The position numbers and the translations under genes were made by a program. From Candidatus Gastranaerophilales bacterium Zag_111 (GTDB lineage Bacteria > Cyanobacteriota > Vampirovibrionia > Gastranaerophilales > Gastranaerophilaceae): a stretch of 64,000 nt of DNA. Below, piece by piece: positions 13,146-57,837 of this stretch. How positions within the stretch are numbered: position 1 is the stretch's first letter; each line of letters starts with the position of its first letter. The notes beneath the pieces were generated by a model, which did not search any database, had not been told where the DNA came from, and saw nothing but the letters and a program-made list of their open reading frames with translations. Location: NCBI GenBank assembly GCA_001899395.1, contig MOYD01000024.1, positions 436-64,435 on the forward strand, in the 5' to 3' direction.

Positions 13146-13290
13146 AACCACAACATGGTTAATCAAAATGATATCACAGCAAGCGGTAAGACGTTGGGAA
13201 GTAGACGAATAGGTACAGTCAGCGGTCCCTAAAACCGTGTGTTAAGGGTTCAAGTTTGGACCCAATAATAAGCGATTATTATTGAAAAGC
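13146..13290 (+). ncRNA. Candidate TnpB omega/reRNA scaffold
   Basis: GC-richer, ORF-less segment directly 3' of tnpB, where omega RNAs normally lie. No model was run. Confidence 0.3.
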
Positions 13291-13430
13291 TATTGAATTG
13301 CTGGAAACTTTACAAAGTAATCAGCAGCGAATTAATACGTTCAACGATTATTCTAATTGAAGTACAGCTTTGCTGGAAGCAATAGCCACCTCAAGCAGGT
13401 GATGATATAATCTATTTTATATTTATTCTA
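13290..13430 (+). ncRNA. Group-I-intron-like ribozyme core (compact or degenerate)
   Basis: ATTGCTGGAAA..AATCAGCAGCG..GTTCAACGATTATTCT..GAAGTA..GATGATATAATC parallels the cores of the 54730 and 55092 introns. The P7 pair is GATTA/TAATC instead of GACTA/TAGTC (compensatory change). Confidence 0.45.
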
Positions 13431-13471
13431 AATATAAAGCGAACCCCTTCTTCCCATCCAAAATGAAAATA

Positions 13472-25960: not shown

Positions 25961-25993
25961 AAGAGATTAGGCATTGTGTCTAATCTCTTTTCT
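25961..25993 (+). terminator. Terminator hairpin
   Basis: AAGAGATTAG-9nt-CTAATCTCTT followed by TTCT. Confidence 0.6.
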
Positions 25994-26008
25994 AAAGGAG
26001 GTATCCAA

Positions 26009-26395
26009 ATGGAATTCCAAGTAAATAATTTCAAAACCCTAAACGAGCAAAAGCAAGACCTAACCAAAAAGCTCTCTTCAATTCCTACAACCAGCGGCAT
26101 CTATCGTCTATACTTCCCCTGCGGCAAATCCTATATAGGTTCTGCGGCAAACCTACGTCAGAGAATTAGAACTCACCTAAACACAATCTATTTAGTACTA
26201 CGCTATGAACCAGACCTAGACTTTTATATTGCCAGTCATAAAGTTCCTAATTGGTGTGGTGAAGCCTTTAGAGATTTAACTAATTATGAACTGGGGGAGG
26301 TAGTAATTAGGTATAGGGAGATAGAGGATAAAGTAGAGAGAGATTTGGCGGCAAAAGATTTAATTAGGGAAGGGAAAAATTTATATAATAGGTGA
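26009..26395 (+). CDS. GIY-YIG nuclease-domain protein (second copy)
   Basis: SGIYRLYFPCGKSYIGSAANLRQRIRTH. ATG after AAGGAGG. Confidence 0.65.
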   Translation: MEFQVNNFKTLNEQKQDLTKKLSSIPTTSGIYRLYFPCGKSYIGSAANLRQRIRTHLNTIYLVLRYEPDLDFYIASHKVPNWCGEAFRDLTNYELGEVVIRYREIEDKVERDLAAKDLIREGKNLYNR

Positions 26396-40910: not shown

Positions 40911-43310
40911 ATGATATTAATGCCCGAAGCTATCGCCGCCGCAACAACGAGATTATTCAAAACAAGAGGAAAAACATTTTATAGAAATGGAATTCAATTG
41001 GAAAAAGGTGCAGTAATTAATGAGAATAGAATAAGATATAATTTAGATTTGTATGAATATTATTTTGATTTATTCAGCCAATATCCAGATATATTTATTG
41101 AATTGATTACTCCAACTGATTCAAAATTTAAACTTAAATTTTTCTAGGTTATTTTTCTAAGAGCTTGTCTACGTTATGGTCGTGTATCAGCTACTATGCC
41201 CCGTGCGGCTGGCAAGTCTTTTATTTGTATTTTAGCACTTTATTTGATTTGTATTTTTAGACCTAGGTCACACGTCAAGAAGGGCGCACTTATATTGTGA
41301 AGTGTAAGTGAAAAGATTAATTAAAAGCTGGGAAATTCTAATACTATTGATACTCGTTGCGCCGCCGCAATTTACTTAAGGCATTTTCATTGTGCAAATG
41401 GCGGCGAAGAGTTGTGAAAACAGAAACAAATTAATAGTTGGCTCATGGTTAAATCCTAAAAGCTGTGATAATGAATAATCAGCACCAAAAAGATTAAAAG
41501 AATCTTGGTTCAACGACTATTCCCTTGAGGAAGTAGGTAATACCGAAAAATTAATCGTCTTAGTAATAAGAATTGATATAGTCTAAAAGCTTTTTATGTT
41601 CACCTGGTCGAAATCAGGGCGTTAAAATTGCAACAGAAAAAATTAAACAACTATTTAATATTTTTCCTTTGTTAAAAAATGAATTAGTGGGAAATGGTAA
41701 TTTTTCGAATGATTATGTTAAGTTGACATTTAGAAATGGCTCATTATTCGATGTAATGACGCCATTAAACTCCACTCGTGGTAATCGTGCTACGTGTGGT
41801 ATTATAGATGAACATCGTTAGATAGCGATGTAAAAACTGCCTAAATTGCGGGAACGCCCTTAGAGCTTTAATAACTAAACAATTATAGTGATATAATTGC
41901 GGCAAGGTATAACGGCTTTGGTATAGTAATATAATTAAAGATTGGGTAATCAAATGCAGCAAATCTTCTCTTGAGAAGAATGTTCAGAGACTATGTAGTA
42001 AGACTTCGGTCTGAAAAAGGCAGCATATTTTTATATGATGATATAGTCCAATCCCTAAATAAATATGTCGAAAGACAGGGTTCTAAATGGATCACAACGC
42101 AGACGATATCAATGAGATCATTCTGCCTTTACTCAACGTTGACCGCCCTATGGTCAATGGAGACATAAATGAGAATGAACCTCAACAGGTTCAATTCTGG
42201 ATTTCGTCAGCGGGAGATAAAAATACATATAGTTATGATAAGACAATTGAATTATTTGAACAATAGATAATCTAGCCAAGTAAAGTGTTTTGCTTTGGAA
42301 TGGATTATAGAATTCCAATTATTTCAGGATTATTAACACCAGCATACTTGAATGAAATTAAATTGTCACCGACCTTTAATGAAATAAGCTTTGCAAAAGA
42401 ATATATGTCCCGATTTACTGGTGGCTCACAAGATGCTTGGTTTGATTTCGAGAAACTGGATTAGAATAGAACATTGATTAATCCTGAGACTCATGAGAAC
42501 CTTAAACCTGGCATCAACGCATACTATGTCATTTCAGTGGATGTGGCTCGCATAGGATGTTAGACGGTTGCCACTGTACTCAAGGTATTTCCTGATATAG
42601 AAAATGGATATAGAATTAATTTGGTAAACATATACGTACTCGGTAAAACGGAAGAGGAAAAAATCTTTGACAGATAGGTTGCAGAGCTTAAGTACTTGAT
42701 AGAGCAATTCAACCCTAAGGTCGTGATCATAGATATAAATGGCATCGGAATTTCCTTTGCAGATGCAATGATTAAAGAGACTTTTGACGAAAAATTTCAA
42801 GTAATGCGCCCAGCTTACGGCTTTAATAATAGAGAGGAATATTTACCTCTACAACCTCGTGGCTGTGAGAAGATTCTTTATGGAATTAAAGCAAATGCGC
42901 AACTTAATAGCGATATGCACTCTGCTTTATATTCAAAAGTCTATTCTGGCAAGCTTAAATTTTTAATTTCAGAAAGTGATGCAAAAGTTAAACTTCTTGC
43001 AACTAAAAAAGGGCAAAGAATGAGTCCTGAGGATAAGAATAAACGCCTATTACCTCATGAAATTACCTCTATTTTAATTAATGAAATTATGAATTTAAAA
43101 CTCAAGCCAACAGGCAATGCAAATCAGATTGCTGTTGAACAAATTAATGAACGGACATTAAAAGACAAGTTCTCTGCACTGGAGATGGGGATTTATTGGA
43201 TAGTACAAGAGGAAAACACTTTAATGTCTCGCCGCCGCAATAGAGGTTTAGGTGGTAAAAAAAGAACCTTAGTATTTTCCGGTAGAGGAGGTGGAGGTGA
43301 TAAAAGATGA
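40911..43310 (+). CDS. terL: Terminase large subunit, three exons (40911..41275, 41599..41818, 42090..43310), 6 in-frame TAG
   Basis: Walker A MPRAAGKS (exon 1), Walker B GIIDEH (exon 2), nuclease-domain-like exon 3. Frames are restored exactly by the two predicted introns. Confidence 0.8.
41276..41598 (+). ncRNA. Group I self-splicing intron (terL intron 1, ORF-less)
   Basis: Core GTTCAACGACTATTCCC..GGAAGTAGG..GATATAGTC is like the T4 td intron. Predicted P1 ACGT/GTGT and P10 TTCAC/GTGAA. Terminal G at 41598 (41589 is an alternative). Confidence 0.7.
41819..42089 (+). ncRNA. Group I self-splicing intron (terL intron 2, ORF-less)
   Basis: 7-bp P1 ACATCGT/GCGATGT with U-G at the splice site. 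Core GTTCAGAGACTATGTAG..GATGATATAGTCC is like the Tetrahymena P7 region. Terminal G at 42089. Confidence 0.75.
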
Positions 43311-54500: not shown

Positions 54501-55565
54501 CTATGATCCTCAGACAATGGAACCATTCCAAGATGGTACTCCAATTGCAGAGGGCGAAGTGATTTATAAGTTTACACGTTCTGTAGCTTATGATGATAAT
54601 AGTATTGGTAATACAATTGAAATTTCTGCGGAGAAATTCCCTGGTACTTATCGTGTAGTAGGCGAGACTTATGTACGTGATAAGAAGACTGGTGAAGATC
54701 AGAGATTCCAGTTCGTTATTCCAGAGGCTAAACATTTGGTCGCTTAAGTGGAAACATTTAAGGCAATAATTAATTAATTGCTGGGAAAACTTAGGTCAAA
54801 TAAACCACAACGCAGTCAGGAATGGCATTCGTGAAGGTTTGAAAATTATTTGATAGTAGAGTTAATCAGCAGCGCGGCGACAGCAATCGCAACGTTCAAC
54901 GACTATTCCGAGAGGAAGTAGAGGTTAAGTAATCTCGAAATATTAAATACCTGAAAAGGTAAAGATATAGTCTTATCATTTGCGGTGACGCAAAGTTCTA
55001 GACAAAGTAATACGAATACTTTGAAAAAATAAATGAAAATGTCAGCAGAAGATACATCCATTACGCTTGAAGCGGATGGAGATCCAGTCGTAAACAGTAA
55101 AATCAAATGCGACTGTAAAATTGCTTAATTGCTGGGAACTCCTTAGAGCTAATAAAACTACAACATAATCTGAAAAGATAAGTGTGAATGTTAAAAATTT
55201 ATTAGATTGGACAATCAGCAGCGTAGTACCTTAAAGGGTAAACGTTCAACGACTATTCCGTAAGGAAGTAGAAGTTAAATAACTTCGATGTGACAATTAC
55301 TGAAAAGTAAAGATATAGTCTGAACTTCTATTGAAAGATAGAGATATAACAAAATTGGTTTGACTTTACAATGGATGTCCTTCGTCCAGACGATGGCGTA
55401 ATGATGAAGTTCATTCAGTTTGATACAGTAGAAAACGAAGAAGAGAACGATGGTTCTACAATGGTTAAGGATACTGAAAACCTCAACCTACTTGACGATG
55501 CAGAAATGTATAAGATTAGTAGTGATACAGAGGAAGACCTAGCTATTGGTGCTACTGAATATTAA
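51517..55565 (+). CDS. Structural paralog 1 (1158 aa), exons 51517..54729, 55036..55091, 55358..55565, 1 in-frame TAG
   Basis: N-terminal MAQNLFEKYGIKEVADV plus VLYLDTLKVST..LITWDFSKEITLSIEDAL. C-terminal GETYVRDKKTGEDQRFQF..ITLEADGDP..GVMMKF is restored only after removing two introns. Confidence 0.7.
54730..55035 (+). ncRNA. Group I intron (paralog-1 intron 1, ORF-less)
   Basis: Core TTGCTGGGAAAA..AATCAGCAGCG..GTTCAACGACTATTCCG..GGAAGTAG..GATATAGTC. Starts AAACA like intron 2. Boundaries come from frame and paralog alignment. P1 is weak, so allow a few nt of error. Confidence 0.65.
55092..55357 (+). ncRNA. Group I intron (paralog-1 intron 2, ORF-less)
   Basis: P1 CAGTCGT/GCGACTG with U-G at the splice site. 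P10 GTTTGA/TCAAAT. Same core as intron 1. Terminal G at 55357. Frame restored. Confidence 0.8.
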
Positions 55566-55668
55566 TAGATATAAAATAAGGTAAAATGGTAAGTTGCAGC
55601 CATTGGCGATCTAATGGTCCAATGGCTGCTTTTACTTATCATAATTAAATACGGAGGTGAATGGAATA

Positions 55669-57837
55669 ATGAATTTATTTGATCAATATGGTATTAAAGA
55701 AGTCGCTGACGTAACAATCTATAGTATTCATAAGAAAGAAGATGGTAGCGGCGAAACATATTATATGCCAGCCTTGTATCTTGATACTTTAAAAGTTACT
55801 ACAACTGAAAAGACTGCTGAAAATACTTGGGCACAGGGCGGCCTAGGCAATTCTCGTTTGATTTCTTGGGATTATTCAAAGGAAATTAATATGACTCTTG
55901 AAGATGCTCTTTGTACTCCTGCTTCACTTGGTCTATGCTGGGGCGGCGTATTGAGTTCTGATTGGAAAGATGCGCAAGTTAATCACCAGTATGGAATTAC
56001 TGATAGTGGTTGTGGCACTGAAAGAATTTCAAGAATGGAAAAATGCTTCTATCCTAGAAATGATATGGCAAATGCTACTGTTAGTTCTTTACTCCCTCGT
56101 GATGGAAAAGAAGACATTGCAGAAGATTGGAATGGCGATTTAGCTTACTTAACTCGTTCTTCTGTTCTTGATGGTACAGTAGTAAAAGGTTTTGGTTATG
56201 TAGATAGTCATCCTTATAAATGGCATTTAGAGATTGAAACTGCTGTTAAGTCTGTGGCTGTAGTTCCAGATAGATTCTATTCTACTCTTGGAAAAGGATA
56301 TCCGATTAAGAAATTCCAGACTGTAGGGATTAATCAGCCCTCAGAGTCTTTTAAATATGAGATAATTTATAGACGTGGTGCAGATAACTATCCTTTTGAA
56401 GCTCCAAAAGCTAAAATTATTTATAATAGACAAGCAGCAGAAGAAGGAGAAAAAACCTTAGCCTGCTGGGATCAACTTGAAGCAATTTCTATGTTAGATG
56501 ATATGGTAACATATCCTTTCTTAAAGATCAGGGTTTGTCTTGACGGTTCAATTAAAGCATATCTTGGTACTGAATCTGTTGATTGGGATTTGGAACGTAC
56601 CATTGACGAAACTGTAGCTGATGCTGATAAATACTGGGTAGAAAATCCATATATTAATACTGAGCAATTTAGATATATTGATATGTGGGAACGATTTGAT
56701 AGCATTAATGCTCTTTCTTATTATTTAATTACTAAATATGAGGAGAATATTTATTCTATTGGTCCGAAAGATATTAAACCAGGTATCCCATTAAATACAT
56801 ATACTGGAATTACCTATTATACCGTACCATCAGGCAGTTATAGTTTTGTAATAAAAGAAGGACAGGTTGTTAATATAGAAGTGTATGATTATGGTACTGA
56901 TTCAGATACAATGGATGAAACAACAGCAAATGATGTTATTAATAAAGTTCCTGAAGATTTAACAGTTACCTTCACGTTGACAGAAGATTTGAATGTTCCA
57001 GCGAACAGTGAGAAAGAAGCTATATATATTGCATTTTTGTATGCATATGGTGCCGTAGATATTGAGAGCGTAACTGATGATTCTAATATTACTTATTATA
57101 CGATTACTAAAAACTCTAGTGCAGATAACTGCGTAGTAGATAGTACATCTGAAGAAGTGACTTACAATGTTGGCGTTTTATCTGTTTAGTTTAATGAGAT
57201 TGATAGTAGTAGCATTACAACCACGGGTGTCACACAAACAAACGTTAGAGCAGGTGACGCGCATGTTGGATTAGGCGACCCAAGCAATCCTACAAATGGT
57301 GTAGTTGGCTTAGATTATGACTTAACAGATTCAAACCTCGCTATTGATAGTGGAACCTGTGTTCCGTGTTGTAAGAAAGCTAATTTAAGTCGTGCAATTT
57401 GGGCATATGTAAATCCTAGAACAATGTCTCCTTATGATGATGATTATTGGTTCCATCAAGGTGAGCCATATCTTAAGAAATCACTATCATTAAGTGCTAA
57501 GAATTCTAAGCTCAAAGCTCAGAAAATTGTTGTCAACACTGGAGAGTTCCCTGGCATGTATAAGATTGTAGGTGAGACTTATATTAGATCTCGTGAAACA
57601 GGTGAGGATGAACGTGTTCAACTATCATTCCCATTATGTAAAATTAAGTCTGACCAAACACTAACGCTTGAAGCAGATGGTGACCCAACAACCTTTAATC
57701 TAGATGTTGAAGTTGCTGTGCCGCCAAATGGTGTTGCAATGGAAATTACATTTTACGATGTTGAAAAGGAAATGACTTCAAGTTGCAATGGTAGTAGAGT
57801 TGAAAAGGATGGTTCAACACGAGTAAGTGCGCAGTAA
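55669..57837 (+). CDS. Structural paralog 2 (722 aa), 1 in-frame TAG
   Basis: MNLFDQYGIKEVADV.. and ..GETYIRSRETGEDERVQ..LEADGDPTTF. ORFs 55657..57189 and 57424..57837 share a frame. Confidence 0.7.

Follow-up and report, generated by a model that had tools for sequence, protein, structure and literature searches.

Two ORF-less group I introns and in-frame TAG codons in the terminase gene terL of an uncultured gut phage

The stretch of DNA analysed here, called the window below, comprises 64,000 nucleotides (nt), namely bases 436-64435 of a 68-kb contig (C24) with 34% G+C that has been binned in a 2.2-Mb assembly of 65 contigs, and its terL gene comes from an uncultured gut phage in which TAG is a sense codon. 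With the standard code the terL region, 40911-43310 on the forward strand, falls into many short frames in the list of open reading frames (ORFs); when TAG is taken as sense, the short frames fuse into three long pieces lying in different frames, and joining 40911-41275, 41590-41818 and 42090-43310 gives a protein of 604 amino acids (aa). The gene is made of three exons and two interruptions, each interruption with a group I intron core. In a preliminary description of this DNA, terL had been proposed to be split by two different ORF-less group I introns near the Walker A and Walker B regions, and the intron cores, the colinearity of the product and the matches to two covariance models bear this out. 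The parts of the gene are the following.

40911..41275, + strand: terL exon 1, aa 1-121 plus 2 nt, with a Walker A-like PRAAGKS and an in-frame TAG at 41145-41147
41276..41589, + strand: intron 1, ORF-less group I intron of 314 nt, last base G 41589, no P9 hairpin
41590..41818, + strand: terL exon 2, 229 nt, starting C-TTT-TTA-TGT (..V FLC SPGRNQ) and ending with the Walker B GIIDE-HR, placed by TerL colinearity
41819..42089, + strand: intron 2, ORF-less group I intron of 271 nt, last base G 42089
42090..43310, + strand: terL exon 3, 407 codons, stop TGA, the nuclease half of TerL, with five in-frame TAG codons and matches to PHROG terminases

The product of the joined exons is a predicted large terminase subunit (TerL), as seen in its colinearity with known proteins, its Walker A and B motifs and its C-terminal nuclease half. 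With the TerL of Geobacillus virus E3, which has no interruption, it aligns in one piece in tblastn (E 1e-114, 40.3% identity across residues 48-571); 130 phage records match, and in 111 of these the alignment extends over 80% or more of the spliced query. The protein matches the PHROG terminase families phrog_2, phrog_9 and phrog_5909, no Pfam model matches it, and in an alignment with three homologues the conserved K102/S103 and E193 columns are present. A portal gene (phrog_2739, E 2.4e-66) follows directly after terL. Intron 1 is inserted 18 codons past the Walker A lysine and intron 2 two codons past the Walker B DE, and the TerL peptide sequences spanning the two splice junctions are HVFLCSPGR and IIDEHRDHNADDINEIILPLLNVDR. 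It could be supposed that terL is left unspliced, being either a pseudogene or a source of three separate polypeptides, and in fact gene callers using the standard code would give fragments here. However, the two gaps correspond exactly to ribozyme cores, exon 1 ends and exon 2 starts in the middle of a codon, no start codon with a ribosome-binding site is present before the internal exons at homologous residues, an intact copy looked for elsewhere in the 2.2-Mb assembly gave no second TerL, and relatives have the same architecture at other sites, so that this supposition is extremely unlikely.

As relatives we collected fourteen phages with about 65% TerL identity (L005 to L018) from IMG/VR, from ENA/JGI metagenomes and from one metagenome-assembled genome; nearer relatives were not found in the viral, metagenome and genome collections, nor was an intron-less allele of the same species. 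With their help the 3' boundary of intron 1 can be discussed. The junction 41275/41590 (a slash marks a junction throughout) produces RPRSHVFLCSPGRNQ; this aligns without a gap to RPGSHQFMCSPGKQQ of the relative L005, which is uninterrupted at this point. The preliminary description had placed the intron end 9 nt too far, at 41598, and the corresponding junction 41598/41599 produces RPRSHV/SPGRNQ, where three conserved residues (FLC) are lost and a 3-residue gap appears against all homologues. Moreover, the 716 in-frame, stop-free splice pairs in 41250-41300 and 41560-41611 were enumerated and their products scored against three homologues: the pair 41275/41589, with a score of 221, comes to within one point of the best, and no other member of the top gapless group has both a U preceding the 5' site and a G at the end of the intron, whereas the pair ending at 41598 scores 162 and ranks 331. 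We place the end at 41589 and not at 41598, because of the gapless colinearity, the ranking of the splice pairs and the alignment to the Rfam model RF00028, which stops at 41589. One may still ask whether 41598 is used as a 3' site, alone or alternatively, leading to a TerL minus FLC, since this position is also a G and the frame is kept; with three residues dropped that every aligned homologue has, with its low rank and with the RF00028 alignment stopping short of it, such usage is very unlikely. The energy of the P10 pairing was tried as a discriminator of the two candidate sites and dropped, as the values are -3.3 and -3.5 kcal/mol with a decoy fraction of 0.18.

Removal of the introns was earlier said to restore a single frame, and this holds insofar as the spliced TerL is colinear with its homologues, but six in-frame TAG codons remain (41145, 42264, 42273, 42462, 42561 and 42675) and the frame is open only if TAG is sense. 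TAG 41145 falls in the invariant Gln column Q79 and TAG 42675 in the invariant Gln column Q391 of the alignment with three homologues, and the TAG codons of terL are probably read as Gln. Phass-1, a TerL relative, is described as reassigning TAG to Gln with suppressor tRNAs (PMC10607447), and its GenBank filing reads 'Caudoviricetes code 15 clade'. On the window and on the whole bin as they stand, ARAGORN finds no CTA tRNA. When the stretch 13241-13437 is searched alone, RF00028 gives 62.1 bits, and after deletion of about 13250-13437 ARAGORN calls a tRNA with a CTA anticodon at about 13195-13460, which leads to one more feature.

13195..13460, + strand: gene of a CTA-anticodon (TAG-reading) tRNA, interrupted at about 13250-13437 by a group I intron, according to RF00028 and ARAGORN

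This call, made after removal of the intron, means that a tRNA able to decode the TAGs of terL is encoded nearby, and the one at 13195-13460 is the likely decoder. Both marks of code 15, namely TAG at conserved Gln positions and a CTA tRNA, are found in this phage.

As to the introns themselves, both contain the catalytic core of group I, i.e. P3, P4-P6, P7 and P8 with the J6/7 and J8/7 consensus; the helices are placed in cmscan alignments, and the pairing of P3, P7 and P8 was taken directly from the sequence. In both, the U at the last exon position stands opposite a G of the guide, and both have a terminal omega G (G 41589 and G 42089), in agreement with what had been described. Neither encodes a homing endonuclease, as previously stated: on the sense strand there is no ORF of at least 50 aa in intron 1, whose only frame is one of 45 aa on the minus strand, and none of at least 50 aa in intron 2. 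The helices of intron 2, all on the + strand, are located as follows.

41825-41831, + strand: guide sequence
41837-41841 with 42019-42023, + strand: P3
41989-41993 with 42044-42048, + strand: P7
42024-42037, + strand: P8
42053-42080, + strand: P9

The P1 of intron 2 has 7 bp, formed by exon ACAUCGU with GCGAUGU (intron bases 7-13), with a U.G pair at the splice site and an energy of -8.9 kcal/mol. Its junction GIIDEHR/DHNADD is gapless against every homologue (the counterpart in L005, uninterrupted here too, is GILDEYRDHKAEDINEI). The intron had been called Tetrahymena-like, a label that does not fit: P7 and P3' are separated by an additional hairpin, and the relatives at the DNA level are phage introns, namely those ending annotated nrdD or DNA polymerase frames in the cultured phages Enterocloster CB457P1, Enterococcus VRE9_1 and Listeria LMLPA3, and further ones inside the RNA polymerase beta genes of AR9 and PhiPA3. 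When seven introns of this family are aligned, 25 of the 38 predicted P4-P6 pairs show compensatory changes. A 3-nt AAA bulge in P4 of intron 2 lies at the position of an 8-nt bulge in the DNA-polymerase intron of LMLPA3, and hence need not be a defect.

The history of intron 2 can be traced further at its own site. In five of the fourteen relatives (L009, L010, L012, L013 and L017) the same phosphodiester carries an insert of 1103 nt, and in the other nine the site is empty, reading ..CGN/GACCAC against ..CGT/intron/GATCAC here, so that the site is polymorphic for presence and absence. The core of the insert is 73.6% identical to intron 2 over 110 nt (L009/L010); its P1 of 8 bp is formed by the guide sequence GCGGUAUU, which lies immediately ahead of P3, and the P1 loop holds an ORF of 282 aa for a GIY-YIG enzyme (PF01541, 34.3 bits), a class to which I-TevI also belongs. 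The two introns (for the long one see e.g. IMGVR_UViG_3300045988_167104 and ENA OPEV01000003) agree in lying after the CGT of ..DE-x-R and before GAY-CAC and in having the guide just upstream of P3; they differ in that the intron of the relatives is 1103 nt long, holds its ORF within the P1 loop and has A as its last base, whereas intron 2 is 271 nt long, has no ORF and a P1 loop of 6 nt, and has G as its last base. The same site, the homologous core and the ORF in the relatives identify intron 2, on sequence grounds, as a mobile intron in the form that has no endonuclease. That one and the same intron occurs at a given site both with and without an ORF is textbook knowledge. As a separate observation, the same-site intron of the relatives (L009 1898-3000; L010, L012, L013 3406-4508; L017 1898-3000) ends ..GAGGGTATTTTATA/GACCAC, its last base being A and not the near-universal G; a G three codons upstream would insert YFI in frame.

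Intron 1 is of a different kind. Its helices, read from the sequence, and a hairpin peculiar to it are the following.

41287-41304, + strand: P2
41315-41321 with 41550-41556, + strand: P3
41324-41519, + strand: P4-P6 domain
41360..41406, + strand: GC-rich hairpin specific to intron 1, with an 8-bp stem of the GCCGCCGC/GCGGCGGC type and one copy of CGCCGCCGCAA
41515-41519 with 41579-41583, + strand: P7
41520-41544, + strand: P7.1/P7.2
41558-41571, + strand: P8

In blastn against deposited phages, the P5-extension region of intron 1 matches a feature annotated 'Group I catalytic intron' in Clostridium phage D-1873, with further matches in c-st, in Staphylococcus PT1-4 and in Listeria phage contigs, and a conserved 15-mer of the P5 extension, ATGGTTAAATCCTAA, is present in more than 102 viral contigs. 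Based on these relatives a covariance model, R1, was built from the P4-to-P7 stretch of 26 diverse phage introns with intron 1 left out; RNAalifold predicts 40 pairs on its alignment, and 30 of the 40 show compensatory changes. The top match of R1 in the window is intron 1, at 41324-41519, with 106.9 bits, the match covering the model from end to end with a single pair marked non-standard (E ~5e-22, the calibration of E-values being rough). The four remaining introns of the window are found by R1 as well, with 77, 58.7, 39.8 (intron 2) and 36 bits, and below E 0.2 there is no further match. Intron 1 is thus a member of a second, widespread phage intron family, which is characterized by a td-like core, P7.1/P7.2 and a P5 extension with tetraloop and receptor. 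Introns of the D-1873/c-st type and the more than 100 viral contigs with the 15-mer have the same P4-P6 architecture, but they reside in other host genes, have a P9 hairpin and carry a shorter P5b-like arm. The td intron of phage T4 with I-TevI, of subgroup IA2, is similar in that intron 1 has the td-type J6/7-P7 UCAACGACUA..GAUAUAGUC and the two small hairpins P7.1/P7.2 between P7 and P3'; intron 1 differs from it in lacking an ORF and P9 and in its long P5 extension, where a GAAA tetraloop is found together with a CAUGG..CCUAA hairpin that resembles a receptor.

The hairpin at 41360-41406 (fold of -16.8 kcal/mol) is a 43-nt insert against 21 model positions, and it stands in for the shorter P5-extension arm of the family. 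The 11-mer CGCCGCCGCAA within it is repeated in the window: 14 copies are found with at most one mismatch against 0.06 expected, of which the exact ones start at 40934, 41360, 43230 and 58979 and the 10 others have one mismatch, so that three exact copies fall in the terL locus.

Taken as a whole, the data argue that both ORF-less group I introns are spliced from terL and that a 604-aa TerL results, given that TAG is read as an amino acid; we assign this reading a probability of roughly 0.85. Several points weigh against it. Both introns stay below the gathering score of RF00028 (50 bits), intron 2 with 45.1 bits (E 1.2e-9 in a 2.6-kb search and 2.9e-8 in the whole window) and intron 1 with just 14.2 bits (E 2.2 over 4227 families). 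The P1 of intron 1 is very short, with exon CGU and intron C1 against GGCG at 41283-41286 (3 exon bp + 1), and its P9 hairpin is absent, with only UAAAAG after P7. Its candidate P10, between CUUUUU at the start of exon 2 and intron AAGAAG, has 6 A/U-rich bp at -3.3 kcal/mol, a strength matched by 18% of the decoy exon 8-mers. The minimum-free-energy fold of intron 1 with its flanks is no better than that of shuffles (z -1.14), in a test that is uninformative for a multi-domain ribozyme. Finally, the site of intron 1 is empty in all 14 relatives, with a polymorphism only versus the present phage, and since no relative has the intron there, its exact ends are set by protein colinearity alone.

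As for P1, a U-G pair at the 5' splice site had been ascribed to both introns; this is true for the 7-bp helix of intron 2, but in intron 1 the helix is weak, U 41275 standing opposite G 41284 in 4 bp as read from the sequence. A stronger P1 pairing that includes the splice-site U of intron 1 was not found in a pairing-energy test, and a helix of exon UCACA with intron UGUGA was rejected, as the splice-site U is left three bases outside it. As for RF00028, the check by Infernal that had been suggested gave both scores under 50 bits for the Rfam model and 106.9 bits for intron 1 with R1. Known members of both intron families score from under 10 to 75 bits with RF00028; for example LMLPA3 gives 17.4, CB457P1 36.6 and VRE9_1 45.9 bits, and D-1873 has no match at E<=1. 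Since known relatives also score low, the low score of intron 1 reflects the model and not the intron, and the gathering threshold of RF00028 is insensitive for these intron classes. In fact, a whole-window Rfam scan at the gathering threshold misses both terL introns, and its speed filters also hide the 62-bit intron at 13241. Even at 14.2 bits, the RF00028 alignment of intron 1 still places P3, P4, P6, P7, P7.1/7.2 and P8.

The same points raise the possibility that only intron 2 splices readily and that intron 1 is decaying or depends on a cofactor, in which case the output of TerL would be limited or helper-dependent. The short P1, the missing P9 hairpin, the weak P10, the RF00028 score and the 43-nt lineage-specific insert in the P5 extension would all suit a decaying intron. 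However, the P4-P6 domain of intron 1 fits R1 almost perfectly, P3, P7, P7.1/7.2 and P8 are intact in sequence, and terL is an essential, single-copy gene whose flanking exons keep the conserved residues; we consider decay or cofactor dependence of intron 1 unlikely.

If both introns are spliced, the events can be proposed as follows. The terL precursor RNA would carry the introns 41276-41589 and 41819-42089, each folding into a P3-P8 catalytic core; the attack of exogenous guanosine would fall immediately 3' of U 41275 and U 41818, the released exon ends would in a second step attack 3' of G 41589 and G 42089, and the exons would be joined at CACGU/CUUUUU (DNA CACGT/CTTTTTATGT) and CAUCGU/GAUCAC. 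The mature mRNA would be translated into the 604-aa TerL, with the six TAGs presumably read by the CTA-anticodon tRNA of the phage. Lacking an endonuclease gene, both introns are unable to home on their own; intron 2 could still spread by recombination or via the endonuclease of a co-infecting relative. With regard to helpers in trans, two free-standing GIY-YIG genes do exist in the window as earlier described, at 5518-5826 (102 aa, 43 bits against PF01541) and 25976-26395 (139 aa, 23.8 bits), but an action of theirs on the terL introns finds no support. As candidates for the missing intron endonucleases they were rejected, since they have only the catalytic motif in common with the 282-aa enzyme (33% over 55 aa and 24% over 55 aa). 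Both of these short genes are without an obvious DNA-binding domain.

A bolder idea, which we hold to be quite improbable, is that splicing gates late-gene expression at several levels, since introns occur in the suppressor tRNA, in terL (twice) and in the tail-tube gene (twice). If it were true, late genes containing TAG would be translated only after the intron of the suppressor tRNA is removed, and the efficiency of splicing would serve as a checkpoint of timing or host state, so that the introns would not be neutral passengers.

Introns in phage terL are already known, and the occurrence of TAG recoding and introns together in terL is a new instance. According to PMC6409932, which cites Kwan 2005 and Gu 2013, introns occur in terL of the Twort-like staphylococcal phages. 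In the Enterococcus phages EF1/EF5 (MF001358), terL is annotated in three pieces with an ORF named 'HNH homing endonuclease # Phage intron'. These phages have in common with the present one a terL of the Bacillota-phage type in several exons, and the TerL of EF1 is 35% identical to the present TerL; the differences are that their introns have HNH genes and their hosts use the standard code, whereas the present introns are ORF-less and the gene needs TAG suppression, the insertion sites not having been compared in detail. In the paper describing phAss-1, which deals with recoded gut phages, introns go unmentioned (PMC10607447). A preprint on recoded phages has a single mention of group I introns.

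Within the clade itself, terL of the relatives L005-L018 is interrupted at four sites, namely residue 62 (14/14), residue 198 (five relatives), residue 349 (five) and residue ~417 (six), which together with the site of intron 1 makes five insertion sites in all. Short and long versions of an intron are found at 62/63, 349/350 and ~417, and not at 198; for example, a version of 316 nt faces one of 1204 nt, and the latter holds a zinc-finger ORF of 311 aa (PF14311). This is a further case of terL as a hot spot for introns, here in one gut-phage clade, with endonuclease-carrying and endonuclease-free forms side by side, a pattern that fits the known cycle of gain and loss of homing introns and opens no new question by itself. 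In practice, anyone annotating terL in this clade has to handle TAG as sense and two introns, one of them nearly missed by the Rfam model; otherwise terL, a key marker for phage taxonomy, will be called as five or more fragments.

Introns are not confined to terL. At 54720-55357 of the window, the 3' end of a virion structural gene (51508.., phrog_2729) is interrupted by a further pair of group I introns, which score 69.3 and 66 bits with RF00028. Comparison with its paralogue at 55657-57837 gives the exons KMSAEDTSITLEADGDP (~55040-55087) and FDFTMDVLRPDDGV.. (from 55359), and the true intron ends accordingly differ from the cmscan coordinates; the second of these introns probably ends at G 55357. 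Moreover, R1 detects seven more group I cores elsewhere in the bin, on contigs C47, C4 and C16, and four of them lie within 9 kb of C47 (16386-25282). With TAG as sense, long ORFs cover 0.89 of C47 instead of 0.47, and C47 is probably another piece of the present phage or of a second recoded phage. In total the phage may carry about a dozen introns.

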